58,127 nucleotides of DNA from the IMG/VR virus record IMGVR_UViG_3300038406_000088, positions 1 to 58,127 of that record; one strand, given 5' to 3'. This stretch comes from a virus. The position numbers were made by a program, and so were the translations under genes. Below are positions 18,095 to 50,072 of this stretch, piece by piece. Below the pieces are notes generated by a model that saw only the letters and a program-made list of their open reading frames with translations, made no database searches and had not been told where the DNA came from. Each line of letters opens with the position of its first letter. Within the stretch, counting starts at the first letter, position 1.

Positions 18095-19894
18095 ATGTCA
18101 AAGGACAACGAGGCGGGGCAGACCCTGCCGGACGGGGGCGACGAGCTTACCGCCGCATTGGCGGGTAAGTCCGAAGCCGAACTGTCCAACATGCGTGACG
18201 ATCTGGTCGCGGCGTTTGACGCCATCTACCAGGACGGCAAAGCGGATATCGACGCTGACGGTTTCGCGAAACTCGAAGTCATCAAGACGCAGATCCTCGC
18301 GGTGAACACCACGGCCGAAGAGGTCGCGACAACCAAGCGCGCGAACGCCGAACGGGCCGCCGCTCTCCGCGAGGCCATCAAGCCCGCGAAGACTGAGGCT
18401 GTCGAAGACGGTGAAGGCGGCACCGAAGCCGGGGACGACGCTCCCGAGGCTGCGGCTCCCGAAGCGAGGGAACTCGTTTCCGCTGGCATCGATGAGAAGG
18501 TGCTCACCGCTTCCATCACGACCGCCATCGGCGAGACCATGAAGGCGTTCGCAGGTGACTACCTCAAGCCGACGACCGACCTGAACCAGCGCGTGCGACT
18601 CGGCACGATTCAGCAGTACGCGCCCGACGCCAAGGTGCACGAGGCTCGCTCTGAGGCCGTGATCGTGGCTTCGGCCGACATCCCCGGCTTCGCACAGGGT
18701 GGCCGACTCGACAACATCACGCAACTCGGTGAAGCAATGCACCGACGCGCGAAGATGCTCCCGGTCGGGCGCACGGGCAACCCCGAAGCGGTTCCGGTCG
18801 CGAGCCTGGAGCGCGAGTTCACGTTCACCCTGAACAAGAACTCCACGCCTGACGACGTGAACGAAGTCCTCAAGGCCGCTGCTGATGAGGATGTCCTCGT
18901 GGCCGCTGGCGGATGGTGCGCGCCTTCGGAGATCTCTTACGATTTCTTCAACGTCGTCTGCGAAGACGGCATGATCGACCTGCCGACCGTGGGTCTGTCG
19001 CGCGGCGGCGTGCAGTACCCGACCTCGCCGAGCTTCGGCGACCTCGCGTCTGACCCGGGCATCGTCTGGACCTGGACCGAGGCCGACGACATCGAAGCGG
19101 TCGACAGCTCGTCTGTCTTCAAGCCGTGTGTGCGTGTCGAGTGCCCGACGTTCGTTGACCGGCGCGCCGACTGTGACGGTTTCTGCGTCACGGCCGGTAA
19201 CCTGATCGACTACGCGTACCCCGAACTGATTCCCAACTGGCTGCGGCTGGTCATGGCGATCCGTGCGAAGGCAACGAACGCGCGCATCATCGATCTGATG
19301 CTGAACGGCGGCGGCTCAGGTGACGCGATCTCCGCGTCCATCGCGGTTGACCACTCCGGCCTGCTCGGTGCGACCACTTCGGCGCTGCTCAGCTCCATCG
19401 AGCTGTCGGCGGTCGACTACCGCGAGAAGTACTCCATGTGCTTTGACGCGATCCTCGAAGTCGTCATGCCCCGTTGGGCTCAGGCGGTCATCCGCGCTGA
19501 CCTCGCGAACCGCGACGGTATCGACGTCTTCGGCGTCACGGACGGCATGATTGCCGACTGGTTCAACATCCGTGGCGTCCGCGTGCAGTTCGTCGGCGAC
19601 TGGCAGGTCCGGTCCGGCACGGACCCGGGCAGGGCCACCCCGGCCACCGGCTGGCCGCTGACCATGGATTACATGATCTACGCTCCGGGCACCTTCATCC
19701 GAGGCAACTCGATGTCGCTCGACCTCGGCGTTGTTCGTGACTCCGTGCTGAACTCCACCAACGACCACACGGCCGCATGGGCTGAGGACTGCTATGCGCT
19801 GCTGAAGCCGGGGCACGAGTCCCGCGTGGTCACGGTCGACATCTGCTCGTCTGGCGAGATCGGTGCCCGCACGTTCACGTGCGAGGGCTCGTAA
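18095..19894 (+). CDS. major capsid protein with a long N-terminal scaffold-like (delta) domain
   Basis: AGAGGGAA ribosome-binding site. The roughly 170-aa acidic helical N-terminus is followed by an HK97-like body. Confidence 0.75.
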   Translation: MSKDNEAGQTLPDGGDELTAALAGKSEAELSNMRDDLVAAFDAIYQDGKADIDADGFAKLEVIKTQILAVNTTAEEVATTKRANAERAAALREAIKPAKTEAVEDGEGGTEAGDDAPEAAAPEARELVSAGIDEKVLTASITTAIGETMKAFAGDYLKPTTDLNQRVRLGTIQQYAPDAKVHEARSEAVIVASADIPGFAQGGRLDNITQLGEAMHRRAKMLPVGRTGNPEAVPVASLEREFTFTLNKNSTPDDVNEVLKAAADEDVLVAAGGWCAPSEISYDFFNVVCEDGMIDLPTVGLSRGGVQYPTSPSFGDLASDPGIVWTWTEADDIEAVDSSSVFKPCVRVECPTFVDRRADCDGFCVTAGNLIDYAYPELIPNWLRLVMAIRAKATNARIIDLMLNGGGSGDAISASIAVDHSGLLGATTSALLSSIELSAVDYREKYSMCFDAILEVVMPRWAQAVIRADLANRDGIDVFGVTDGMIADWFNIRGVRVQFVGDWQVRSGTDPGRATPATGWPLTMDYMIYAPGTFIRGNSMSLDLGVVRDSVLNSTNDHTAAWAEDCYALLKPGHESRVVTVDICSSGEIGARTFTCEGS

Positions 19895-19930: not shown

Positions 19931-20830
19931 ATGAGTCGCGGAAGATTCCAGATCCCCAGTGACGCACTGCCGTTCACTTCCCCTGCGTACGACCTGTTGA
20001 CCACCGCAACGCAGCTCGCACTGCCCGACAACGCTCATTGGAAGATGGGCCTACAGTGGCAGTCGATGTGTCCGGACGCAGATGGTACGTACGGGGAATG
20101 CACGAGTCCGGACGGGACACCGGTCCCCGCGCCCAAGGCTGATACTTGGAGCAGGCATACACGCGGAGCGACGCCGGTAACGGTGTACAGCCGCATCGAT
20201 TGCGCTCCGGTAGCGGAGTGGGACCAGCTTCCCGAGCAGAATCGGCAGGCGCTGCTACGTGCCGAAGCTGCCGAACTGGAACGCATCATCTGGACTGGTG
20301 AGGCGGAACAGGACAGCGGCAACGTTACTGTGTTCCCGCACCTTGCCGACGACGGACCGACCGTTATCGACGGGGATGACATCCTCCAGGTTGCCGCAAC
20401 GGTAGTCACGGACATCCCGCAGACGATCGAGGTCGGCATCGGGATGTTGGAAGACGCTATGCGGGACTGCTACCACGGCGTAGCCACCCTGCATGTGCCG
20501 ATTCGGCTCGGTGCGCTCATGGCGGAAGCCGTACTGCTGGCACCGCGCGCGGGCGTCATGTACACGTCGTCGGTCGGTTCGAAGGTGGTGCTCGGTGAAT
20601 ACCCGGGTACCGCTCCGGACGGGACGAGCACTGACGGTGTGACGTGGGTGTACGCCACAGGTGCCGTGTTCTTCCAGCGTGAGCCTACGCCGCACACCTT
20701 CACGCCTGTCGAGTCGTTCGATCGTGACGTGAACACGCTCAGCATGATTGCGGAGCGAACCTATGTCGTCGGTTGGGATTGCTGCCTCTTGGCGATTCCG
20801 ATCCTGAACGGCGAAGACATCACATCGTAA
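19931..20830 (+). CDS. second capsid-like structural protein (vertex or minor capsid?)
   Basis: 299 aa, immediately after the major capsid gene. The assignment rests on size and overall pattern only. Confidence 0.35.
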   Translation: MSRGRFQIPSDALPFTSPAYDLLTTATQLALPDNAHWKMGLQWQSMCPDADGTYGECTSPDGTPVPAPKADTWSRHTRGATPVTVYSRIDCAPVAEWDQLPEQNRQALLRAEAAELERIIWTGEAEQDSGNVTVFPHLADDGPTVIDGDDILQVAATVVTDIPQTIEVGIGMLEDAMRDCYHGVATLHVPIRLGALMAEAVLLAPRAGVMYTSSVGSKVVLGEYPGTAPDGTSTDGVTWVYATGAVFFQREPTPHTFTPVESFDRDVNTLSMIAERTYVVGWDCCLLAIPILNGEDITS

Positions 20831-20845
20831 GGGGGTTGATACAGG

Positions 20846-21514
20846 ATGTCACAGTGCGCTAATCCAATCAGAGGCGAAATCGTTCGCTTCACACTGCTTG
20901 ACCAGTGCGGAGTCCCCGTTACGGGTGATGGCTCCGCTCAGGTCACCACGGACGCGTGGACGGAAATCACCGTCACGCCCAACTATGAAGACGGTACCCG
21001 CCTTCTTCAGCTCAAGGCCAACGGGGAACCGTGCGTCAACGAGCAGAGCCCGTCATTCCTGAACTGGATTGATGAGGTCACGAACCTGTGCACGCTCGAC
21101 GTTGACCTGATCGCGCTGGTGTTCGGCGAAGACCCGATTGTGTCGGTTGCTCAGGCTGACTTCGTCGGTGTGCAGTTCGGTACCGGCCTGTTGAATGCGC
21201 GTTTCTCCAAGGAGATTTGGCAGCCTGTTGCGGGAGAAGATGCCTGCGACGCCGAAGGCAATCAGCGGTGGATTTATTGGGCGTTCCCGCACGAGTACAA
21301 CGCTCGTGTTGAAGCGCTCACGTTCACGAACGACGTGTTCACCTTCGGTTTCGCGAGCATGAGCAAGCCCGCGTCGCCGCTGTGGAACATCGGTGACCCG
21401 TGGCTGTCCGACTCGCCTGTCAGCACGTGGGAACCGGGGAAGCACTTCGCTTTCGCGATCACCACGGTTCAGCCTCCCGAGCCCGCTTGCGGCGCTGTGG
21501 AGATCGGTAGCTGA
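20846..21514 (+). CDS. putative major tail (tube) protein
   Basis: 222 aa. The N-terminal pattern (RFTLLDQCGVP..., GEPCVNE..., LCTLDVDLIALVFG) resembles siphovirus tube proteins. No other candidate precedes the chaperone genes. Confidence 0.45.
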   Translation: MSQCANPIRGEIVRFTLLDQCGVPVTGDGSAQVTTDAWTEITVTPNYEDGTRLLQLKANGEPCVNEQSPSFLNWIDEVTNLCTLDVDLIALVFGEDPIVSVAQADFVGVQFGTGLLNARFSKEIWQPVAGEDACDAEGNQRWIYWAFPHEYNARVEALTFTNDVFTFGFASMSKPASPLWNIGDPWLSDSPVSTWEPGKHFAFAITTVQPPEPACGAVEIGS

Positions 21515-21521
21515 TAGGATA

Positions 21522-21542
21522 GATGGGCAGATGTAGCCCATC
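21522..21542 (+). terminator. weak hairpin after the putative tail-tube gene
   Basis: GATGGGC-7 nt-GCCCATC. Confidence 0.3.
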
Positions 21543-21602
21543 ATGCCGGGGGAGCGTTTACCTAGTCACCGGGTTACGCTCCCCCATTTCCATGTCGGAA
21601 GG

Positions 21603-22238
21603 ATGACGATGCAGGACGATTCCGTAAGCCCATTTCTCGGTACTGGACATGGCCGATCGGGAACGATGTGGACTGCGGAGTTCTTCACGCGTATCGGTTT
21701 CCCCACGTACCATGAGCGACAATTCTCCCCAGTGCGATCGCACACGTTGACGCATCATGAGGTGTCGTGGCTTGCGATCCCGTTCCTGCCATCAATTCCA
21801 CGTGGCACGAGGATATTGCGCGTGGTTCGAAACCCGTACCATGCTGTTATGTCCGGGATGCAGATGGACTTCCAAGAGCGACCGGGAGCCACGTCGTTTG
21901 ACCGGTTCATGGAGCAGCATCGGCCTGATATCGCAGACGCACCAGACAAGCTGACACGCATTATCCGGTGGGTGGCGTTGTGGGACTCACCGCTAGATCA
22001 GACGCCACATAAGGTGATCCGACCTGATGCTGACGCGTTGGACCGGCTAGGCGAAGTGGTCGAGTACGCGACGGGCATATCGGTCTCTCAAGAGCACACG
22101 GCGCACGCGTGCGCACAGCTCGGCAGCAAGGTGAACACGAAGGCAGTGCGCAGGAACCCAACCACACGTGAGGACATCGATGGGCATCCCGAAGGCTGGC
22201 GAATCCGGGAACGAGCGGAACGGTTCGGGTATGCTTGA
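21603..22238 (+). CDS. sulfotransferase-like protein
   Basis: GTGHGRSGT resembles the PAPS 5'-phosphosulfate-binding loop. VVRNPYHAVMS resembles the RDPxDxxxS 3'-phosphate motif. Confidence 0.55.
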   Translation: MTMQDDSVSPFLGTGHGRSGTMWTAEFFTRIGFPTYHERQFSPVRSHTLTHHEVSWLAIPFLPSIPRGTRILRVVRNPYHAVMSGMQMDFQERPGATSFDRFMEQHRPDIADAPDKLTRIIRWVALWDSPLDQTPHKVIRPDADALDRLGEVVEYATGISVSQEHTAHACAQLGSKVNTKAVRRNPTTREDIDGHPEGWRIRERAERFGYA

Positions 22239-22294
22239 GTCGGTGATCCCGCAACTGATACACTCACATGTTCTTAGGATGGAGGAGGACAAAG

Positions 22295-22831
22295 ATGCAC
22301 GACAACACGACATGCAAGATTGATGGATGCAACTCCAAGGTTTCTAGGCGCGGGTGGTGCAACGCTCACTATCTGAAGTGGTATCGACACGGTGACCCTA
22401 ACCGAGATTACAACTCAGAAACTGAAATCACGGAAAGATTTTGGTCAAAGGTTGATGCGTTTGGGGATTGCTGGGAGTGGTTGGGAAGCAAAACTGCTGC
22501 AGGTTACGGTGTCTTTTCTGAGAGAAACTGCAAGGTGTATGCACACAGGAAGGCGTACACGGTCTTGATAGGTCCGATCCCTGATTCGCTGGTGATCGAC
22601 CATCTGTGCAGAAATGTTTCGTGTGTCAACCCCGATCACCTCGAAGCTGTTACGCAGGGCGTTAACGTAAAGCGGGGGATCGCACCAATGGCGGTAAACG
22701 CCAAGAAAACACACTGTCCTCGTGGACATGAGTACACGCAGGAGAACACGTATCGTAAACCTCGAACAAACTATCGTGAGTGCCGACAGTGCACAAGGGT
22801 TAACGCCGCGTCTCGTGGGGGTGCGTCGTGA
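22295..22831 (+). CDS. HNH homing endonuclease
   Basis: GGAGGAGGA ribosome-binding site. CKIDGC..RRGWCNAHYLKWYRHGDP, CWEWLG..GYG and IDHLCRNVSCVNPDHLEAVT motifs. Lower GC. Confidence 0.85.
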   Translation: MHDNTTCKIDGCNSKVSRRGWCNAHYLKWYRHGDPNRDYNSETEITERFWSKVDAFGDCWEWLGSKTAAGYGVFSERNCKVYAHRKAYTVLIGPIPDSLVIDHLCRNVSCVNPDHLEAVTQGVNVKRGIAPMAVNAKKTHCPRGHEYTQENTYRKPRTNYRECRQCTRVNAASRGGAS

Positions 22832-23478
22832 CAATTCCTCACGTGATGCACCACATCTGGCTAGGTAGTCCGTTGCCGGAACATCTTGCCTCGAACATCC
22901 GGGAGTGGCAAAGACTTCATCCCGAGTGGGAATCATTGGTGTGGGGCGACAAAGACTTCGGCTGGCTGCAAAACCAAGCACTGTTTGACCGGGCAGGCGA
23001 TCTGGTCCCTCGTGACGCTGTTTGGCAGTTCAAATCTGATTTGTGTAGATACGAAATCCTGTTGCAGTACGGCGGATGGTACTGTGATACAGATACCCGT
23101 CCTCTTCGTGCGATCGATTCCGCGCTAGCTGGGCATGACGTGTTCGCGGCGATGGAAGATAGCAATTACGTGGGAAATACCTATCTGGGTTGTACTCCTG
23201 ATCATCCGATAATGCGTGAGATCATCGGGGCCATTCCCAGAAACGTCAACCGTAACCAAGGTAAGCGTCCGAACGTGCTTACGGGACCTAAATTCATCAC
23301 TCCGATCTGGAAGCGGAACGGGGGGTATGCGGCACAGCCTCACCTTTGGTACCCATATAGCTACACTCACGTGAAAAGCGGAACTGTTCCTACCGATTAT
23401 CACCCGGAAGCGTTTGCGGTTCACGAGTGGTTTCACACCAAGAGCGTTATGGAGGCAAGACGTGCTGTCACTCGATGA
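22828..23478 (+). CDS. GT32-type glycosyltransferase (DXD sugar-binding region)
   Basis: HHIWLG...P, SDLCRYEILLQYGGWYCDTDT matches the Gly_transf_sug signature. Lower GC. Confidence 0.75.
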   Translation: MTIPHVMHHIWLGSPLPEHLASNIREWQRLHPEWESLVWGDKDFGWLQNQALFDRAGDLVPRDAVWQFKSDLCRYEILLQYGGWYCDTDTRPLRAIDSALAGHDVFAAMEDSNYVGNTYLGCTPDHPIMREIIGAIPRNVNRNQGKRPNVLTGPKFITPIWKRNGGYAAQPHLWYPYSYTHVKSGTVPTDYHPEAFAVHEWFHTKSVMEARRAVTR

Positions 23479-24088
23479 ACTCGCCGAACTCGACGGGCTG
23501 ATTCCCCGCGAAGTCGGCGAACACCTGCTCAAGCTCGCGGCGCGCGTGCCAGTCGATCAAGCCATCGTGGAACTCGGATCGTACCGAGGCAAGTCCACGT
23601 GCTACCTGGCGACCGGAGCGCGGCAGGGCAACGGCGCGCACGTCTACGCCGTTGACGCGTGGTCCGAGGAGGTTTCTGCGTGGCGCAGCAAGATTCTTGA
23701 TCGGCTGCCTTCCCCGTTGTACGCGGACTTCCGTGCGCAGGTCTCGAAGGCCGGTTTCAGCGACGAACACGTAACCGCTGTCAAGTCACTGTCGACCATG
23801 GCCGGTGACCACTACGAAGGGCCGCCGGTCGGCCTGCTGTACATCGATGGGGACCACGCGAAGCGCGCCGCTATCGCCGATCTCCGTGCATGGCGATCGC
23901 ACCTCACTGACGATGCCCTGGTGGTCTTCGATGACTACGCCATGACGAATAATCCCGGTGTCAAGGTCGCGGTTGAAGCGCTCACCGAATCCGGCGAGCT
24001 TGCCGACGTGCAAGAGGTCGTGTCGCGCATCGCGGTATGCAAGCTCGGTGCCGTTCGTGGCACACGAAAGCCGGGAGTGGGGAAGTGA
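23462..24088 (+). CDS. class I SAM-dependent methyltransferase (Methyltransf_24-like)
   Basis: VELGSYRGKST, YIDGDH and VVFDDY motifs. GTG start overlaps the upstream stop. Confidence 0.7.
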   Translation: MLSLDELAELDGLIPREVGEHLLKLAARVPVDQAIVELGSYRGKSTCYLATGARQGNGAHVYAVDAWSEEVSAWRSKILDRLPSPLYADFRAQVSKAGFSDEHVTAVKSLSTMAGDHYEGPPVGLLYIDGDHAKRAAIADLRAWRSHLTDDALVVFDDYAMTNNPGVKVAVEALTESGELADVQEVVSRIAVCKLGAVRGTRKPGVGK

Positions 24089-24666
24089 AGTCAATCAACT
24101 ACACGCCCGCAGGTTACTGGGATCGCAGGTACCGCGAGGGTCGAACATCTGGCGCGGGCTCCGAAGGCGACGAAGGCGCGTACAAGGCGGCGTACGTCGA
24201 ACGGTTCATCATTGATAACGATGTTGAGAGCGTGATCGACTGGGGGTGCGGAGACGGGCAGGTACTCGCACAGATCGAGCTGAACGGCGCTCGATACACC
24301 GGCATCGACGTATCTGAGACGATCGTCAAGCGCATGCGTGAACGGTTCCCGCATCGTCGGTTTCTATCGTCAACCGACGCGCATGATCGTTGGTCGCACG
24401 AACTGGGGCTCAGCATGGACGTGCTGTTCCACCTGCCCGACGACGCCGATTACTTCGGCTACCTTGATCAGCTTTTCGGCAGTGCGACGCGGTTCGTGGT
24501 CATCTACGCCACGAACTACGCGGGTGGCCGAACGGCGCGGCACGTCTTCCGACGCGAGTTCACGCCCGACATCAAGGAGCGGTTCCCCGACTGGAAACTC
24601 ACGACTGTTGAGACGCCGCTCCGCGAAGGGCTCGCGTCGTTCTTCGTGTACGAAAAGAAGGCATGA
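24085..24666 (+). CDS. class I SAM-dependent methyltransferase
   Basis: VIDWGCGDGQVL and GIDVSE motifs. GTGA overlap with the upstream gene. Confidence 0.7.
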   Translation: MKSINYTPAGYWDRRYREGRTSGAGSEGDEGAYKAAYVERFIIDNDVESVIDWGCGDGQVLAQIELNGARYTGIDVSETIVKRMRERFPHRRFLSSTDAHDRWSHELGLSMDVLFHLPDDADYFGYLDQLFGSATRFVVIYATNYAGGRTARHVFRREFTPDIKERFPDWKLTTVETPLREGLASFFVYEKKA

Positions 24667-25493
24667 TGCGACTCTCAGTGAAGATCATGGCGCACAAGAA
24701 GCGTGCGCGGCATATCCCCGGCCTCCTCGAACGACTCGGACTCACCGATAAAGACGTGATCTGGGATCGTCGCAGTGACAGGTGGGATACCGGCCGTCGC
24801 GCATGGGAAGCGGTAGACCAGACGGCCGACTTCGGATGCGTGCTCCAGGATGACGCATTGGTGCCGCTTGACTTCATCGCAGGCATGGAAAAGGCGCTGA
24901 CCTACCTGCCCGAACGCGCGCTCGTATCTCCGTACACGGGAACACGCAGACCTTCGGCAAGCCGTGTCGAACGCGCTGTGATCGAGGCGCGCAAGGCGGG
25001 TGTGTCATGGATTCGTATGCCGTCGCTGAACTGGGGTGTCGGCATCATCGCGCCGACAGACATCATCGATCGCATGTTGCCGTGGTGCGACAAGCAGCAG
25101 TACCCGAACTATGACCGCCGTATCGGCCGATACGCCATCGACGTTCTCGGCATCCCCACGTGGTGTACGTGGCCCTCACTCGTGGATCACCGCGATGACG
25201 ACAGCCTCGTGGGACACGGGCAAGGCCGCAAGGCGCATCAGTTCCTCGGTGAGGACGTTTCCGCGCTCAGCGTGAAGTGGGACAGCTCTTACGTTGATCT
25301 CTCCCCGAAGATGGTCGTAGGGCGTCGTTTCCCGAAACGGCCCGTCGCTAGCGTCTTCAACCCGCAGCCTGCCGAAGAGGTGTCGGGGGTGCGAGCGGCC
25401 CGCGTGGCGAGCAACCGACAACGTGCCGCTTCGGTGCTACGCGTACCAAGGCAAGGCGGAACACCTGATGTACCGCCGAAGCGCCCGGCATAG
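24663..25493 (+). CDS. GT-A-like glycosyltransferase (putative)
   Basis: LQDDA (DXD-like) and SLVDH motifs. ATGA overlap. Basic, disordered C-terminus. Confidence 0.5.
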   Translation: MMRLSVKIMAHKKRARHIPGLLERLGLTDKDVIWDRRSDRWDTGRRAWEAVDQTADFGCVLQDDALVPLDFIAGMEKALTYLPERALVSPYTGTRRPSASRVERAVIEARKAGVSWIRMPSLNWGVGIIAPTDIIDRMLPWCDKQQYPNYDRRIGRYAIDVLGIPTWCTWPSLVDHRDDDSLVGHGQGRKAHQFLGEDVSALSVKWDSSYVDLSPKMVVGRRFPKRPVASVFNPQPAEEVSGVRAARVASNRQRAASVLRVPRQGGTPDVPPKRPA

Positions 25494-25533
25494 CGTCTCA
25501 CAGGCGGTACACTGATCTGCACGGGGGTTGGCA

Positions 25534-26730
25534 ATGGCGATAGCGCAGTACACGGACAAATTCTGGTATCCAGATGGCACGCTGGCGACAAACATTGCGG
25601 TGCGTATCTTCCCGCTGAACTCGAACATCCTCGCGCCGCTGTTTGCTGATCTTGCCGCTACGGTTCCGTTGGATAACCCGCTCACGACCAGCGGAACCGG
25701 TGACATATCGTTCTTCGCCGAAGAGGCCGAATACTGGCTGCACATCGACACCGAGACGTTCCGTATCCGGGTCGGTCCCGAACCCATCGACCCGGCCAGT
25801 GAAATTGCCGCAGCCGTCCTATCGACGGGCATCACGGCCGGGGGCGACCTCTCCGTGAACGCCGTAAGTTCCTCCGCTATCGACATCGCCCCGCTCACCG
25901 GGTACATCACTGATTTCACGCCCGACCCGTTCGCGCCGACTATCACCCGCATCACGTACCCGGGCGGGACGGTGGAAATGGACGCGGGTGCGCTGGCCCG
26001 GACGGCCACGGCGTGGCTCATGGACGCGGGCCAAGTGATCACACAGCAAGCGCTACCGCCCTCGAACGCGCAGCGCCGCACCCATATTTTCCTTGGCGTG
26101 ACCGCACAAGTCGGCGGCGTCATCATTGTCGACCAGTCGCTACCGGTCATCATGCAGCAACCCGCGAACCAGCTCACGGACCTCATGACCGCGCTCGGGG
26201 CGTTCAACATCTCCGGGAACCAGATCACCCCCAACGGCGTCAACCGCATGATCGACCACGCCGCCGGGACCCTGTTCTCTCAGGCGTTCAACCACTTCGT
26301 GGGGTCGGTACAGACGGACGACCCGCACGTGTCCATCAGCGGCGCGCATTCACCGGTGAACTTCCGCTACGCCACTCGTGACGTGAATGTACTGTTCGGA
26401 CCGTTGACGAACCTGGTCGACGTGGCGAATTACGATGTCGGCGGCGTCGTCACGCCTGTCGGCGGCGGCGCGAACACCAGCACCATTCACCGTGTGTTCA
26501 TGTTCGCGAACAATAACCCGGATGACCAGATTGTTTTGCAGTACGGGCAAACCACGTATTCGAGCCTCGCCAACGCCGTCAACTCTATCGGCGCCGGAAC
26601 GTTCATACCGAACCCGCTCATGCGGGCCGCCGCGTTCCTCGGGTATATCTGTGCCACCCGCACCGCCACGAACCTCTCCGACACCGCGCAAGCCGTGTTC
26701 GTGGCCGCAGGAAAGTTCGCCACGCCGTAA
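25534..26730 (+). CDS. hypothetical virion protein
   Basis: About 398 aa, between the island and the connector genes. No motif recognised. Confidence 0.5.
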   Translation: MAIAQYTDKFWYPDGTLATNIAVRIFPLNSNILAPLFADLAATVPLDNPLTTSGTGDISFFAEEAEYWLHIDTETFRIRVGPEPIDPASEIAAAVLSTGITAGGDLSVNAVSSSAIDIAPLTGYITDFTPDPFAPTITRITYPGGTVEMDAGALARTATAWLMDAGQVITQQALPPSNAQRRTHIFLGVTAQVGGVIIVDQSLPVIMQQPANQLTDLMTALGAFNISGNQITPNGVNRMIDHAAGTLFSQAFNHFVGSVQTDDPHVSISGAHSPVNFRYATRDVNVLFGPLTNLVDVANYDVGGVVTPVGGGANTSTIHRVFMFANNNPDDQIVLQYGQTTYSSLANAVNSIGAGTFIPNPLMRAAAFLGYICATRTATNLSDTAQAVFVAAGKFATP

Positions 26731-26739
26731 GGAGGTCCC

Positions 26740-27594
26740 ATGCCAGTTATCAATCCTATCCCGACAGCCGCAACGGCTGGAGGTGCAGCGTTCGGTTCGT
26801 GCCAAGCGTGGAATCTGTCGTGCGCTACTTTCCCCGAATCGGTGACGCCGGAGCTTGAAGCCACGGCGGCAATGATCGCCACCGAAATCCTGTGGAACCG
26901 AACGAAACGCCAGTTCGGCGTCTGCTCGGTGAAGCTGCGACCGTGCCGGAAAGACTGCCTCCCCGCTGGTCCGTGGATTCCCACGACGGGCGGGTGGTAC
27001 GACTTCACCGGCTCATCGTGGCCGTTCCCGCAGCCCGCACTCATCGGCGGCGCGTGGATCAACATCGCGTGCGGATCATGCTTCTCCGACTGCTCGTGCT
27101 CGCACATCTCCGAAGTGCGCCTTCCATATCCGGTAGCCTCGATTACCGAGGTCAAGGTTGACGGCGTTGTGCTGCCTTCCACGGCTTATCGCGTGGACAA
27201 CTTCAACCTCCTCGTTCGCATCGACAGTGAGGAGTGGCCGCGGTGCAACGATATGAACCTCGAAGACACCGAGGTAGGTACGTGGTCGGTGACCGCCGAT
27301 TACGGGCAGGAGGTTCCCGAGCTCGGCAAGCTCGCAGCTGGTCAGCTCGCGGTGGAGATCGCGAAACGGTGCGTGAACGCCTCCGGTTGCGTCCTACCAT
27401 CCGGCACCGTGCAGGAGGTGACGCGGCAAGGCGTCAAAAAGGTGTTCTTCGATTCAGAGACGGCTTTCAAAGGCGGCATGACGGGTATGTACTGGCCTGA
27501 CCTGTTCATCAAGACGTACAACCCGAGCGGCACTGGTATCGCCACGATCTTTGATATCGACGGGTCACGACCACGGCGGGCAGGTACCTCCTGA
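26740..27594 (+). CDS. head-to-tail adaptor (putative)
   Basis: Position, plus a gp6-like segment ATEILWNRTKRQFGVCSVKLRPC. Confidence 0.5.
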   Translation: MPVINPIPTAATAGGAAFGSCQAWNLSCATFPESVTPELEATAAMIATEILWNRTKRQFGVCSVKLRPCRKDCLPAGPWIPTTGGWYDFTGSSWPFPQPALIGGAWINIACGSCFSDCSCSHISEVRLPYPVASITEVKVDGVVLPSTAYRVDNFNLLVRIDSEEWPRCNDMNLEDTEVGTWSVTADYGQEVPELGKLAAGQLAVEIAKRCVNASGCVLPSGTVQEVTRQGVKKVFFDSETAFKGGMTGMYWPDLFIKTYNPSGTGIATIFDIDGSRPRRAGTS

Positions 27595-36458: not shown

Positions 36459-36944
36459 ATGCCGAACACGAGCAACTACGGATTCGACTACGAGTCGCCT
36501 ACGTCCCTACCAGGGACAACGCTCACCGGGGGGCCTACCTCATCGCTGCCGATCTTGGCCGTACAGGTGGATGCTGCCCTGGCTGCATTGAACACCACGG
36601 TGGTAGACCAGGCATCGTCGATCGCTGACCTCGATGCACGGATCGACACCAATCAAACGAACATCACGAATCTGACCAACTGGACACGTCACGGTACGGT
36701 GCTCGTCAACTTCACGTCGTCGGGAAGCTTCACGACAGTCGTGAACTTCGGGTTCACGTTCCCTACTGTCCCGGCTGTGGTGACGAACATCGATTCGGGC
36801 GCGGGACCGACAGCACGTTTCGAGACACGAGCAATCACGTTGACGACAACAGGCTTCACGCTCTTCGTGTACTCCAGCGTTGTCGGTGGTACGGCCACAT
36901 GGGTTGACGTTCCTGTGAGCTGGGTTGCTAACTATCGTCCGTAA
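36459..36944 (+). CDS. minor tail / fibre protein (paralog 2)
   Basis: The N-terminus MPNTSNYGFDYESPTSLPGTTLTG..PILAVQVD..L parallels paralog 1. The C-terminus diverges. Confidence 0.55.
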   Translation: MPNTSNYGFDYESPTSLPGTTLTGGPTSSLPILAVQVDAALAALNTTVVDQASSIADLDARIDTNQTNITNLTNWTRHGTVLVNFTSSGSFTTVVNFGFTFPTVPAVVTNIDSGAGPTARFETRAITLTTTGFTLFVYSSVVGGTATWVDVPVSWVANYRP

Positions 36945-47580: not shown

Positions 47581-49384
47581 GCTTTTCCGCCCATCGCTTA
47601 GCTGTTGCCCCGCCCGCGGTAAGTGGGATGGACAACAGGCTGTCATCATTCATAACGTCTTTCATGGTCGCGATAACGTCTGAGACCTCGCTGTCGGGCA
47701 CATCTGCGATCACTTCGTCGTGCACCACCAGCGCAAGATAATCCCCGATGCCTGCTGCGTCCAACTGTAGGAGCGCGCCCTTCATGATCTCAGCAGCAAC
47801 GCCTTGGATCTGGTGGTTCACGAGCTGGTAGAACAGGTTCGGGTTGTGTTGTTGGAACCTTCGCCCGGTGAGCGGAGACTTCACGTACCCCACGCCATCC
47901 TCGCGGTACCGCTGCGAGGCGAGACGCTGAATCGTCTGCTGATGTGCGGGCACACCCGCATACGTGCCGTTGAAGTCAGCGGCAAGCTTCTCGATCTCGG
48001 CGAGCGGTCGCTTCGTGGTCGTCGCCAGCTTGTCGTTGCCCGCTCCGTACAGCGTGGCGTAGGTGTAGCTCTTCGTAAGGTTGCGCTGCGGACTCTTCTT
48101 GGTGATCGTCTCGTCCTGGTAGATCTTTTTCGTGAGCGCCACGAAAAAGTCTTCATCTGAGAGAAATGCCTCCCTAAGTCCTGGATCTCCCGAAAAGGAC
48201 GCCATTACCCTTAGCTCGATTTGATCGTAATCGAACAGGACAAACGTGCTATCAGGCGACGCAACGATGCAGTTTCGAGCGATCTTGCTCAGCGGGTCCG
48301 ACTCGTCCACTCGGGTGAGCTGTTGCAGGTTCGGGGATGAACTGCTCATACGGGCAGTTTTCACCCCAAACGCGCCTGCGGACTGCTCTTTGTACCCGAG
48401 TGTATTTATTGAAGTATGAATCCTCCCATCGAAGGATGAATACTCCAAAAACCTCTTAAGGTACGTCGAGTTGATCTTTTCCGCCTGCTTGCGTTGCTGC
48501 AAGAGCGCTGCCAACGGGTGGTCGATGCCCTCAAGCGCGAACTTGTCCAGCGACCACGCGCCGCCGTCCGTCCGCTTCCACAGCTTCACGCCGTCCGCAA
48601 TGAAGAGGTCGGTCACCTGCGTAGCCGAGCCGAGATCAATGCCGAACTCATCGAAGCCGCGCTTCGTGAGGTCGACGTGCAGTGCGTCTAGCTCGGTACG
48701 CTTCGCCTGGGTGTACTCGCGGTCGCAGGCTACGCCCTTCATCTCCATCTTGTCGGCCAGCCAGCCAGTTGCGAGTTCGAGGTCATAAGCCCTGGGTGCG
48801 ATAGCCATTACCGTGGGTGCATGATGCTCCCACAGCAACGCGGTAATCACGCAATCGAGTGCTGCATATTGCCAATACGCCGCACACGGACCGGTGGCAC
48901 TGATGGGTACCGTCGCCCACGTATACCCCCCAGAGTGCATCAAGGAGTCCAAAGAACCTTGCATTGCCGCCGCTCGCGGGTCAATGTGCTTCGCAGACTG
49001 CTGCTTGAGCCCGATCGACACGGACGGGTCAACGATGTGACACAGCATCATCGTGTCATCGGTCAGGTGCGGGGGCAGGTGGATGTCGTGGTTTCGGAGC
49101 ATCGCGAGATCGAAACGAACATTGTGGCCTACGAACCTCCCCTTGCGCGACCACCGGTCAATGATCTCCTCGACCAGTCCCTTCCAGCGGTCAATCGGGA
49201 TAGCCCAGCCGTCGCTAGCGGTCCCAAACTGCACGAGTCTTACCTTATCGCGCAATTTGTCAATTCCGGTCGATTCGCAGTCGACCGCCAAGCGCTCGCA
49301 GGTGAGTCCCGAAAGCCAATCGAGGCACGCCGCAACATCTTCGTACGTCTCCACCAAATGGAGACTAACCCCCTCAAGAGCCAT
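47570..49384 (-). CDS. polA: DNA polymerase I (family A) with 3'-5' exonuclease domain
   Basis: ExoI VDCESTG, motif A DYDQIELRV, motif B RNLTKSYTYATLYG, motif C VHDEV. Confidence 0.9.
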   Translation of the reverse strand: MALEGVSLHLVETYEDVAACLDWLSGLTCERLAVDCESTGIDKLRDKVRLVQFGTASDGWAIPIDRWKGLVEEIIDRWSRKGRFVGHNVRFDLAMLRNHDIHLPPHLTDDTMMLCHIVDPSVSIGLKQQSAKHIDPRAAAMQGSLDSLMHSGGYTWATVPISATGPCAAYWQYAALDCVITALLWEHHAPTVMAIAPRAYDLELATGWLADKMEMKGVACDREYTQAKRTELDALHVDLTKRGFDEFGIDLGSATQVTDLFIADGVKLWKRTDGGAWSLDKFALEGIDHPLAALLQQRKQAEKINSTYLKRFLEYSSFDGRIHTSINTLGYKEQSAGAFGVKTARMSSSSPNLQQLTRVDESDPLSKIARNCIVASPDSTFVLFDYDQIELRVMASFSGDPGLREAFLSDEDFFVALTKKIYQDETITKKSPQRNLTKSYTYATLYGAGNDKLATTTKRPLAEIEKLAADFNGTYAGVPAHQQTIQRLASQRYREDGVGYVKSPLTGRRFQQHNPNLFYQLVNHQIQGVAAEIMKGALLQLDAAGIGDYLALVVHDEVIADVPDSEVSDVIATMKDVMNDDSLLSIPLTAGGATAKRWAEKRDI

Positions 49385-50072
49385 CTTTATCCCTCATCTT
49401 TCGTCGTTGTCGTCCTCTGCGCTGTCCTTCATTCTTGCATGTACGACATGCTCGGTGTCCGTAAGTGTTGTAGATGGTGTTTTCTTCTGTGTACGCGTGA
49501 TTATTGGGGCAGTGAGTGATTTTTGAAGCACTCAGAGCTGCATGCAATCCAGCGATGCCTCTTCTGGTGTTTTCACCAGTCGTTACCGGTTCGAGATGAT
49601 CGGGGTTTACACAGGACTTGTTCTTGCACAAATGATCTATCACCAAGGATTCTTGGATCGGCCCTACTAGATTTTCCCACGCAAAACGGTGCGCATACCA
49701 CCATGTGTAGTGCACCCGGAATTTTCCATACCCGCGCCGGTCGCGCGTTCCAACCCATTCCCAGCAATCACCATCGGCATCAACATGTGCCCAAAAACGT
49801 TCTTCCGGTGATCCGTCGATGCGCTTGCGTACTTGGTACTCTGGGTTTCCGTATCTGTGCCACCTCTGATAGTGCTTTGAGCACCAGCCTCGCGTAGCCT
49901 TCTTGCTTTCGCATCCTTCAATCGAGCATCTGTTATCGTTGAGCACGACGGACACCTCTATAACTCGCTGTTCGTCCACGTCCTCGGCGGGTGCAACCGC
50001 GCGAGGACTCTTCTTTACATAGTATACATCAGTCCGGAGCTCCGAAGAGCCCCGCACCCTAGCTGGATACAA
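49374..50072 (-). CDS. HNH homing endonuclease
   Basis: CSIEGC..RGWCSKHYQRWHRYGNP, CWEWVG..GYG and IDHLCKNKSCVNPDHLEPVT motifs. Low GC. Its stop overlaps the polA start by 11 nt. Confidence 0.85.
   Translation of the reverse strand: MYPARVRGSSELRTDVYYVKKSPRAVAPAEDVDEQRVIEVSVVLNDNRCSIEGCESKKATRGWCSKHYQRWHRYGNPEYQVRKRIDGSPEERFWAHVDADGDCWEWVGTRDRRGYGKFRVHYTWWYAHRFAWENLVGPIQESLVIDHLCKNKSCVNPDHLEPVTTGENTRRGIAGLHAALSASKITHCPNNHAYTEENTIYNTYGHRACRTCKNEGQRRGRQRRKMRDKDGS

Follow-up and report, generated by a model that had tools for sequence, protein, structure and literature searches.

A candidate virion-glycosylation cassette with an optional sulfotransferase-like enzyme in the structural operon of an actinophage-like virus

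Introduction

Virion glycosylation systems have been described in the mycobacteriophages Che8 (gp108-110), Corndog (gp35-38) and also Myrna (Freeman et al. 2023, Cell Host Microbe 31:1216, by way of PMC12363180 and PMC11600133). The glycosyltransferases Che8 gp110 and Corndog gp38 are reported to be essential for capsid glycosylation (PMC12363180), and the Corndog methyltransferase together with three glycosyltransferases modifies the capsid and the tail tube (PMC11600133). Here, we analyse the DNA of an uncultured, actinophage-like virus (IMG/VR record IMGVR_UViG_3300038406_000088, positions 1 to 58,127, hereafter the window, 58,127 nucleotides). Comparison of sequences and predicted structures suggests, with a probability that we put at about 0.6, that it carries a Che8/Corndog-type cassette for O-glycosylation of virion proteins, located in a variable slot flanked by the tail-tube gene on one side and the head-tail adaptor gene on the other.

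Results

Five enzymes encoded within the structural operon

Terminase, portal, MuF/protease and capsid genes precede the cassette, and tape measure and tail protein genes follow it. The major capsid (hexamer) protein gene (18095..19894, +) matches phrog_777 at 3e-130, and the major tail (tube) protein gene (20846..21514, +) matches phrog_792 'major tail protein' at 7.7e-38. The downstream edge of the insertion slot is the head-to-tail adaptor gene (26740..27594, +; phrog_783 at 1e-58), separated from the cassette by a variable 400-aa gene. In tblastn searches, the tail-tube and adaptor gene products match gp18 (major tail protein, 5e-11) and gp19 (1e-24) of the Gordonia phage Ligma, respectively. 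A previous sequence-only reading had placed the cassette inside the structural operon, and this is borne out by cassette-free relatives, in which the tail-tube gene directly abuts the adaptor gene.

The ORF list and the Pfam and PHROG matches confirm the six ORFs of that reading, with their domains and coordinates. All lie on the + strand. A sulfotransferase-like (ST) gene, recognized by family motifs, Pfam and fold (21603..22238; ORF from 21543 or 21603, start ATG at 21603 or 21609), is followed by an HNH gene, a GT32-type DXD glycosyltransferase gene (22828..23478; PF04488), two class I SAM methyltransferase genes, MT24 (23462..24088, ORF 23414-24088; PF13578) and MT2 (24085..24666, ORF 24037-24666; PF08241/PF13649/PF08242), and ORF6, encoding a GT-A fold glycosyltransferase (24663..25493; phrog_854). 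The true starts are likely GTG 23462, preceded by GGAGG, for MT24 and GTG 24085 for MT2. The tight packing reported earlier, with overlaps of 4-17 nt, agrees with the measured 17 nt (GT32/MT24), 4 nt (MT24/MT2) and 4 nt (MT2/GT-A). Of the two gaps said to flank the HNH gene, the one on the ST side stands (29-56 nt), but the other disappears, with 4 nt of overlap, should GT32 start at GTG 22828.

Two stable hairpins (21522..21585, +) follow the tail-tube stop codon. The region 21510-21610 has an MFE of -46 kcal/mol (z = -4.4), and 0/200 shuffles fold equally well. A simple terminator scan made no call at these hairpins because they are not followed by a T-run. They may act as an attenuator or terminator, keeping expression of the enzymes below that of the structural proteins.

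The HNH gene had been counted as part of the modification island, a view that we abandon. Its product matches PF13392 (45.9 bits) and phrog_826 (1e-48), and is 52% identical to a second HNH protein encoded at 49374-50072(-). In one relative (L098), otherwise collinear at 92-94% identity, the HNH gene is missing and the breakpoints fall inside a 72-nt ST-GT32 spacer, delimiting an insertion of ~520 bp (22282..22795, +; CDS 22295-22831, ORF as listed 22268-22831). In the cassettes of other relatives, HNH genes occupy different positions and are also found on the opposite strand. The HNH gene is a free-standing selfish homing endonuclease that landed in the ST-GT32 spacer, outside the modification pathway, and the cassette therefore comprises five enzymes, not six.

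Among 80 IMG/VR capsid relatives, the GT32-MT24-MT2-GT-A series was found between the tail-tube and adaptor genes at every locus with a capsid at least 61% identical and sufficient downstream sequence. By contrast, the ST gene is present in some sublineages only and missing from most cassette-bearing relatives. Judged by gene content, the cassette is a core of GT32, MT24, MT2 and GT-A with an optional sulfotransferase-like enzyme. The conserved four-gene core, the patchy ST gene and the HNH insertion unique to this genome support the stepwise acquisition proposed earlier, although on different grounds, since it is this presence/absence pattern and not the GC content that argues for it. The GC figures first given were approximately right (58.6% for ST, 51.2% for HNH, 52.8% for GT32, 62.7-63.8% for MT24, 60.5% for MT2 and 62.5% for GT-A, against 60.2% for the whole window), but the mosaicism is modest, and the GC content of GT32 is somewhat below that of its neighbours in many relatives too.

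Core glycosyltransferases and methyltransferases

ORF6 has no match in Pfam and matches phrog_854 'glucosyltransferase' at 5e-37. Its tblastn homologues include Che8 gp110 (2e-9), Corndog gp38 (3e-4) and phiAsp2 Pas35 (8e-33), and Q62-D63-D64 is invariant. The AF2 model reaches a pLDDT >90 over most of residues 1-216, the C-terminal tail (residues 217-276) being disordered and basic. This model gave 64 fold matches in the PDB at E <= 1e-3, all of them GT-A enzymes among the matches listed. [quoted passage not shown]

GT32 (PF04488 at 43.7 bits; DXD motif D87-T88-D89) is kept in all cassette-bearing relatives. Its sequence matches in the PDB are the protein-glycosylating glycosyltransferases SetA and Och1, described as toxins and as protein-O-glycosylating. 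MT24 matches PF13578 (Methyltransf_24) at 79.7 bits and is 38% identical to phiAsp2 Pas34, originally annotated 'putative O-methyltransferase'; this core cassette gene probably encodes a SAM-dependent (O-)methyltransferase. MT2 matches PF08241 at 29.4 bits, and its nearest deposited phage homologue is gp76, encoded in a glycosyltransferase/methyltransferase cassette of the M. abscessus prophage prophiGD91-2. No transmembrane-like segment was found in any of the five enzymes (maximum KD19 1.13).

The PHROG and RefSeq labels of these families, 'DNA methyltransferase' for MT24 and 'glucosyltransferase' for GT-A, raise the question of whether the enzymes hypermodify the phage DNA, with glycosylated and methylated bases evading restriction. 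Some phage glycosyltransferases are known to decorate 5hmC (bioRxiv 10.1101/2023.12.21.572611), and the ST-MT-GT modules of other lineages are sited among DNA replication and recombination genes, outside structural genes. This latter setting also speaks against a virion function, but the validated Che8 genes are likewise found among replication genes. However, a Pfam scan of about 40 ORFs of the window revealed no hydroxymethylase, TET or thymidylate-synthase-like domain, MT24 is of the Methyltransf_24 O-methyltransferase type, in line with the original annotation of its phiAsp2 homologue, and the sequences of MT24 and MT2 both lack a (D/N/S)PP(Y/F) motif. In addition, capsid proteins are the substrates of the homologous glycosyltransferases in Che8 and Corndog (PMC12363180). 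Taken together, these observations make DNA hypermodification highly improbable.

The cassette might also modify glycans or glycolipids of the host cell envelope during infection rather than the virion, for example a methylated or sulfated surface polysaccharide or a trehalose/GPL-type glycolipid, blocking superinfection or aiding release. Actinobacterial pathways for envelope glycolipids characteristically include sugar O-methyltransferases and sulfotransferases, MT24 matches PDB 6g7d (1.7e-9), which we take to be the M. hassiacum polysaccharide methyltransferase MeT1, and the location of the ST-MT-GT module outside structural genes in other lineages would fit as well. MeT1 is a mannoside 1-O-methyltransferase (PMC9883506). 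We nevertheless consider an envelope target unlikely: membrane segments are absent from all five enzymes, neither a flippase nor polyprenol-linked machinery was seen, the tested members of the GT-A family glycosylate capsids (PMC12363180), and the co-variation of the cassette with the C-terminal serine of the capsid and tail tube would be left unexplained. Furthermore, none of the ORFs scanned proved to encode an integrase, and lysogenic seroconversion therefore seems unlikely.

Capsid and tail-tube C-termini

Freeman et al., in 2023, reportedly found glycans placed on the protein C terminus. In the window, the capsid ends in ...TFTCEGS-COOH and the tail tube in ...GAVEIGS-COOH, an ending in GS being found in only 7/546 six-frame ORFs. 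The capsid and tail tube end, respectively, in ..KTGS and ..SDGS in Che8, ..LVGS and ..KGDS in Corndog, and ..SSGS and ..EEAS in prophiGD91-2, as opposed to ..VTP and ..PAA in the cassette-free Ligma. When distinct variants are counted, a C-terminal serine is present in 11/11 tail tubes with the cassette versus 3/25 without, and in 8/13 capsids with the cassette (5/13 not ending in serine) versus 1/24 without, an association confounded by phylogeny, as the cassette-bearing loci form one clade and Fisher p-values therefore overstate independence. No C-terminal serine was found in phiAsp2 Pas27-Pas36, which comprise virion and neighbouring proteins, even though MT24 and GT-A have their nearest relatives among deposited sequences in this phage. 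[quoted passage not shown]

The sulfotransferase-like protein

Taken singly, the sulfotransferase-like protein has no Pfam match above threshold (13.7 bits against PF00685, cut-off 22), and no homologue was found in 50,697 deposited phage records. The TGxGRSGT and RxxR(N/D)PxxxxxS motifs are invariant across 22 homologues, of which 10 match PF13469 and 7 match PF00685. RNPxxxxxS aligns with R130-S138 of SULT1A3, both PAPS-binding motifs are correctly spaced, and the invariant H37-E38 pair is a candidate catalytic base. Foldseek searches with the AF2 model (pLDDT 92.6) returned sulfotransferases as top matches in both PDB and BFVD (E about 3e-3, TM 0.4-0.55), the best BFVD matches being sulfotransferase-family proteins of Xanthomonas phage FoX4, Hokovirus and cyanophages. 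Across most of the contexts inspected, among them five lineages beyond the clade, the gene adjoins Methyltransf_24 and glycosyltransferase genes, and domain relatives are fused in single polypeptides to GT2, GT41+TPR or FkbM methyltransferase domains; this adjacency and these fusions argue for a glycan-tailoring role.

Glycosylation may be the right reading without this protein sulfating the glycan: sulfation might fall on a protein residue or a host metabolite instead, or the protein could use another nucleotide in the manner of P-loop kinases or be a dispensable passenger. Consistent with this possibility, its absence from most cassette-bearing relatives means that the core function does not require it, its matches to sulfotransferase models and structures score marginally, the P-loop kinases gluconokinase, Fap7 and RapZ are also among its fold matches, and two context types, L005 and L106, have no glycosyltransferase gene beside the gene. 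By contrast, the invariance and spacing of the PAPS-binding motifs, the dominance of sulfotransferases in both fold searches, and the recurrent neighbours and fusion partners favour glycan sulfation and make its absence improbable. A sulfated, methylated glycan is plausible. As no PAPS-synthesis gene was seen among the ORFs scanned, sulfation would depend on the host.

Discussion

We propose that late transcription of the structural operon would include the cassette, with read-through into the enzyme genes probably attenuated by the two hairpins. The soluble GT-A enzyme and GT32 would then build an O-linked glycan from host nucleotide sugars, with the C-terminal serine of the capsid (...EGS) and tail-tube (...EIGS) subunits as the proposed acceptor. 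The two SAM methyltransferases would methylate the sugars of this glycan, and the sulfotransferase-like protein, where the sublineage carries its gene, would sulfate it using host PAPS.

Like Che8 and Corndog, the window combines a homologous GT-A glycosyltransferase (gp110, gp38) with accompanying methyltransferase(s), and capsid and tail-tube subunits ending in serine, mostly G-S. The Corndog cassette is also inside the structural operon, but upstream of the capsid gene, whereas that of the window is placed between the tail-tube and adaptor genes. An HNH endonuclease gene close to the cassette is shared with Che8, Tweety and prophiGD91-2. In contrast to Che8 and Corndog, the GT-A enzyme is accompanied by GT32 and by two class I methyltransferases, one of them of the Methyltransf_24 type; at the thresholds used, these partners showed no similarity to Che8 gp108/109 or Corndog gp35-37. 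A sulfotransferase-like gene is added, and the capsid and tail lineage is Ligma/Sourvirus-like, in an uncultured clade.

Pas33-Pas35 of the Actinoplanes phage phiAsp2 (glycosyltransferase, O-methyltransferase and glucosyltransferase) include the closest deposited homologues of MT24 (Pas34, 38%) and GT-A (Pas35, 39%), encoded by adjacent, translationally coupled genes just 3' of the tail genes. However, Pas34 is a 596-aa multidomain protein, and GT32, the second methyltransferase and the sulfotransferase are lacking. Genes 73-81 of prophiGD91-2 encode four glycosyltransferases and two class I methyltransferases, followed by HNH, with gp73 resembling GT32 and gp76 resembling MT2 (partial similarity, 30-38% identity), but this cassette is upstream of the terminase gene, outside the structural operon, and without a sulfotransferase. 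The ST protein shares with PAPS-dependent sulfotransferases (Sulfotransfer_1/Sulfotransfer_3; cytosolic SULTs, heparan sulfate 3-OST/NST) a 5'-PSB-like loop, GRSGT, a 3'-PB-like motif, RNPxxxxxS, and, in the predicted model, the overall fold, although it is much smaller (about 205 aa) and scores below Pfam thresholds. The methylated and possibly sulfated coat that a sulfotransferase and a second methyltransferase would imply had been put forward as undescribed. A two-methyltransferase cassette already exists in prophiGD91-2, and the sulfotransferase-like protein, for which the deposited phage records gave no sequence homologue, is the only new component.

The island in the tail-tube/adaptor slot

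The structural operon, delineated by Pfam and PHROG gene assignments, runs from the terminase (9867) through the portal (13958), MuF/protease (15520), capsid (18050), phrog_779 protein (19931) and major tail protein (20846) genes, encloses the island (21603-25493), and continues with a 400-aa tail-fibre-like gene, the head-tail adaptor (26740) and the tape measure (29269). The six-gene composition proposed in the sequence-only reading was confirmed, with all six ORFs on the + strand and Pfam or PHROG assignments for five. ORF1 (21603-22238), which encodes the sulfotransferase-like protein ST, has no Pfam, PHROG, NCBIfam or PDB sequence match when searched alone. It is followed by genes for an HNH_3 protein (22268-22831; PF13392, 45.9 bits), a Gly_transf_sug/GT32 protein (22828-23478; PF04488, 43.7 bits, cut-off 23) with a DXD motif in its translation (D87-T88-D89), a Methyltransf_24 protein (MT24, 23414-24088; PF13578, 79.7 bits), a class I methyltransferase of the Methyltransf_11/25/12 type (MT2, 24037-24666; PF08241, 29.4 bits) and ORF6 (GT-A, 24663-25493), which matches the phrog_854 'glucosyltransferase' at 5e-37. 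Junction sequences indicate probable starts at GTG 23462 (behind GGAGG) for MT24 and GTG 24085 for MT2, with which the overlaps are 17, 4 and 4 nt. Two strong hairpins lie directly after the tail-tube stop codon (21522-21585, +; GAUGGGC..GCCCAUC and GGGGGAGCGU..ACGCUCCCCC; joint MFE -46 kcal/mol, z = -4.4), and they argue for a start of the ST ORF at 21603 or 21609, not at 21543.

Against 50,697 deposited phage records, megablast found no close DNA relative of the region, and distant blastn against deposited phages returned short capsid matches only. The gene layout resembles that of the cassette-free Gordonia phage Ligma, in which the major tail protein gene gp18 is directly followed by the adaptor gene gp19, homologues of 20846-21514 and 26740-27594 in the window. 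A tRNA scan detected no tRNA genes. Window genes were mapped onto 80 fetched IMG/VR loci with capsid relatives (L-numbers; the best 80 of 477). Every one of these loci whose capsid is at least 61% identical and whose downstream sequence is long enough carries the core, GT32-MT24-MT2-GT-A, in the same order in the tail-tube/adaptor slot, and loci with <=57% identity are without core genes, the tail-tube gene abutting the adaptor. These cassette-free relatives bear out the claim that the island was inserted into the structural operon.

The 400-aa gene between cassette and adaptor (25528-26730, +) matches phrog_16641 'tail fiber' (6e-74), and its first 80 aa are similar to the phrog_24355 N-terminus. 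We rejected it as a cassette member: it is missing in many cassette-bearing relatives and found in the cassette-free L080 and L084, and is therefore a separate variable gene in the same slot. Further downstream, a small protein of the distal tail region (36459-36944, +) has a weak H-type lectin match (PF09458, 22.7 bits, cut-off 24) and may be a carbohydrate-binding tail component.

Core enzymes

ORF6 retrieved, by tblastn, Che8 gp110 (2e-9) and Corndog gp38 (3e-4), both reported as essential capsid glycosyltransferases of mycobacteriophages (PMC12363180). It is 39% identical to Pas35 of the Actinoplanes phage phiAsp2, is also homologous to the Tweety-type cluster F 'glucosyltransferase', and matches no Pfam family. 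Its AF2 model has a pLDDT >90 over most of residues 1-216, followed by a disordered basic tail (217-276), and gave 64 PDB fold matches at E <= 1e-3; among the matches listed, these are GT-A enzymes throughout, including Mimivirus R655 (2e-8), POMGnT1, GnT-I, KfiA and ppGalNAc-T2. An acidic DXD-type motif, Q62-D63-D64, is invariant. By its modelled fold, ORF6 is a GT-A glycosyltransferase. In the PDB, GT32 finds its sequence relatives among toxin domains that glycosylate proteins, namely Legionella SetA and Och1.

MT24 resembles phiAsp2 Pas34, described in its original GenBank note as 'putative O-methyltransferase', and matches PDB 6g7d (1.7e-9), which we take to be the M. hassiacum enzyme MeT1. 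MeT1 is a mannoside 1-O-methyltransferase (PMC9883506). RefSeq and PHROG (phrog_2675) label this Methyltransf_24 family, including phiAsp2 pas34, 'DNA methyltransferase', apparently a misannotation that has been propagated. Among deposited sequences, MT2 is closest to gp76, from the four-GT, two-MT cassette of the M. abscessus prophage prophiGD91-2. Neither MT24 nor MT2 has detectable similarity to Corndog gp35 or Tweety gp103. In Corndog, an O-methyltransferase and three glycosyltransferases modify capsid and tail-tube proteins (PMC11600133).

A C-terminal serine co-varies with the cassette

Capsid and tail-tube proteins end in ..KTGS and ..SDGS in Che8, ..LVGS and ..KGDS in Corndog, ..SSGS and ..EEAS in prophiGD91-2, and ..CEGS and ..EIGS in the window, with identical C-termini in L004; those of cassette-free Ligma end in ..VTP and ..PAA. 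Within the window, a terminal GS occurs in only 7 of the 546 six-frame ORFs. Across the IMG/VR set, a tail-tube C-terminal Ser (GS, ES or FS) is present in 11/11 distinct C-termini with the cassette versus 3/25 without it, and a capsid C-terminal Ser in 8/13 versus 1/24 (Fisher p = 6e-7 and 2.5e-4, respectively, with no phylogeny correction and the cassette-bearing loci forming one clade). The homologous C-terminal segment shifts from ..CGAV(V/T/L)L(A/V) to ..(A/C)GA(V/L)EI(G/F/E)S, which makes the Ser a carrier-specific substitution. Freeman et al. 2023 are said, in their abstract, to place glycans C-terminally on capsid and tail-tube subunits, and the Ser pattern fits such an attachment. A literature search for a detailed description of the attachment site found nothing useful.

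Five of the 13 capsid variants with the cassette end otherwise (..ITC, ..VCA, ..CGA, ..AEA and ..CAP; L032, L036, L039, L053/L054 and L059); the tail-tube proteins of these loci always end in Ser, and perhaps the tail tube alone is modified there. At the 'capsid pentamer' position, the phrog_779 protein (19931-20830, +) ends in ..EDITS; its relatives end in TS, TP, AP or EL, with no consistent Ser rule, and it has no direct tblastn match to the Ligma pentamer protein.

These C-termini also bear on whether the cassette modifies the host envelope instead. We disfavour that explanation, as the cassette co-varies with the C-terminal Ser, the homology is to capsid-acting glycosyltransferases, and the enzymes appear soluble, none of the five containing membrane-like segments. 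We favour a virion-glycosylation system, to which we assign a probability of roughly 0.6.

HNH insertion and stepwise assembly

The window aligns collinearly with L098, an ST-bearing locus, at 92-94% identity; the exception is a ~520-bp stretch at roughly 22282-22795 that corresponds to the HNH gene, and the comparison places the insertion site in the ST-GT32 spacer of 72 nt. Three HNH_3 genes are present in the genome (Pfam, PF13392; 761-1237, +; 22295-22831, +; 49374-50072, -), and the cassette copy is 52% identical to the one at 49374-50072. HNH genes also lie inside or beside the cassette in relatives, at other positions and on the opposite strand (L020:4143-4532(-), L029:15472-15789(-), L048:14152-14541(-)), a pattern suggestive of an insertion hot spot for homing endonucleases. 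The HNH domain and the presence/absence polymorphism at an otherwise collinear site are those of a free-standing homing endonuclease. Given the L098 polymorphism, the paralogues and the shifting positions and strands, we conclude that the HNH gene is a homing endonuclease gene that arrived in a separate, later event; having counted it among the modification genes was mistaken. Joint arrival of HNH and GT32 as one low-GC block was likewise discarded: the L098 GT32, 100% identical in amino acids to that of the window, occurs without HNH.

The ST gene is found, within the window's clade, only in the window itself, L019-L021, L098, L101, L004 and L017; L023-L030, with capsids 92-94% identical, are without it and have a ~100-nt spacer in its place. 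Stepwise acquisition, as proposed earlier, thus draws support from the presence/absence pattern. The GC mosaic first offered as its evidence (measured here as ST 58.6%, HNH 51.2%, GT32 52.8%, remaining genes 60.5-63.8%, window 60.2%) is weak, because in many relatives, too, GT32 tends to have a slightly lower GC content than the adjacent genes, and we dropped a recent transfer of GT32 argued from this mosaic on the same ground. The window and L098 share one GT32 allele, which has only 59% identity to L019:4693-5349, with flanking genes 86-100% identical between window and L019 except MT2 (75%); this points to allelic replacement of GT32 by recombination within the clade.

A sulfotransferase-like family linked to glycan-building enzymes

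ST has 29 homologues, all metagenomic, and tblastn found none in the 50,697 deposited phage records. An alignment of 22 homologues shows invariant F-L-x-T-G-x-G-R-S-G-T and R-x-x-R-(N/D)-P-x5-S motifs, plus H37-E38; the corresponding window residues, T14-G15-x-G17-R18-S19-G20-T21 and R73..R76-x-P78..S84, are fully or almost fully conserved. The profile motifs align to PKSGTTW and RNPKDVAVS of human SULT1A3, and ST thus has both the 5'-phosphosulfate-binding loop and the 3'-phosphate-binding motif of PAPS sulfotransferases. The window protein stays below the curated Pfam threshold (PF00685, 13.7 bits, cut-off 22, E = 0.043); within the family, 10/22 members match PF13469 (best 1.5e-5) and 7/22 match PF00685, at E <= 1. 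Foldseek with the AF2 model (pLDDT 92.6) returned almost exclusively sulfotransferases as top PDB and BFVD matches, at only E = 2e-3 to 1e-2 and TM 0.4-0.55, headed by PAPS sulfotransferases (PDB, E ~3e-3) and viral 'sulfotransferase family' proteins (BFVD).

Outside the window's clade, ST lies directly beside Methyltransf_24 and GT2 genes in five lineages (L006/L015; L007/L016/L107; L008/L009; L102/L103; L104/L105), and this adjacency is absent only in L005 and L106 among the contexts examined. A profile search of 1.84 billion representatives yielded 2,284 ST-domain relatives at E <= 1e-3. Ten longer matches, of multi-domain length, were scanned with Pfam; six have a partner domain, each time a glycosyltransferase or methyltransferase: GT2 in P0214, P0286 and P0295, TPR plus GT41 (O-GlcNAc-transferase-like) in P0209 and P0266, and an FkbM methyltransferase in P0257. 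The ST domain is thus linked to glycan-building enzymes by its gene neighbours as well as by its fusions. In L007 and L107, the module includes a UDP-galactopyranose mutase gene (GLF; L007:3846-4979, L107:14410-15537) and the terminase gene follows immediately downstream; the mutase suggests a galactofuranose-containing glycan in this lineage.

The ST-MT24-GT2 loci L102-L107 lack structural genes and instead encode replication and recombination functions. Such a setting for an ST-MT-GT module would suit DNA hypermodification, with the cassette acting on phage DNA. We disfavour this because the ~40 larger ORFs scanned with Pfam include no base-hydroxymethylating enzyme (dNMP hydroxymethylase, TET/JBP dioxygenase or similar) and the methyltransferase is of O-methyltransferase type; a location away from structural genes is also that of the validated Che8 genes. 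Under virion glycosylation, the glycan may really be sulfated, though we put this at clearly below even odds. ST may have another acceptor or be dispensable, its gene being missing from most cassette-bearing relatives. No PAPS-synthesis gene was seen among the ORFs scanned, and no relevant paper on sulfotransferases in actinobacteriophages was found.

Proposed model and significance

We make a tentative proposal, which we rate below even odds: a widespread clade of uncultured actinophage-like siphoviruses would carry an O-methylated glycan on the C-terminal Ser of capsid and tail-tube proteins, sulfated in some members by a family of ~205-aa glycan sulfotransferases that had escaped recognition, is carried mostly by phages and also turns up alongside Methyltransf_24/GT2 modules across several unrelated phage lineages. 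The cassette would be transcribed late through the structural operon, the hairpins after the tail-tube stop codon probably attenuating read-through to the enzyme genes. GT-A and GT32 would build the O-glycan on the C-terminal Ser of tail-tube and capsid subunits, MT24 and MT2 would methylate its sugars, and ST, where present, would use PAPS supplied by the host.

To our knowledge, the first report of glycosylated phage virions dates from 2023 and covers only a few cultured mycobacteriophages, where glycosylation reportedly shields the particles from antibodies. Here, judging from the best 80 of 477 capsid relatives, the same principle seems to be a fixed part of the structural operon throughout an uncultured clade. 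If true, this would give a simple sequence rule for glycosylated phages, a gp110-like glycosyltransferase plus a capsid or tail-tube C-terminal Ser, usually G-S, and the first bacteriophage particle known to bear a sulfated glycan coat. Sulfation may be new chemistry, performed by an enzyme family foreign to the deposited phage records. A negatively charged, methylated coat would alter virion surface charge, host adsorption and immunogenicity, with relevance to phage therapy and to phage movement through soil and mucus. The fusions of ST to GT2, TPR-GT41 and FkbM domains offer a functional context for >2,000 unannotated sulfotransferase-like representatives.

Comparison with known systems

The window shares several features with the Che8/Corndog-type systems: ORF6 is its homologue of gp110 and gp38; a methyltransferase is present in the Corndog and Tweety cassettes, as MT24 and MT2 are here; the C-termini ..EGS/..EIGS parallel ..GS/..DS; and the Corndog cassette, gp35-38, likewise lies inside the structural operon, unlike the validated glycosylation genes of Che8. 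Virion-glycosylating cassettes of glycosyltransferases and methyltransferases are already known, and prophiGD91-2 is a deposited precedent for a cassette with two methyltransferases. What is new is an uncultured clade in which a four-gene cassette is conserved and fixed at the tail-tube/adaptor slot, another set of partner enzymes, a recurrent ST-like accessory gene without homologue in deposited phages, and a C-terminal Ser signature that co-varies with the cassette.
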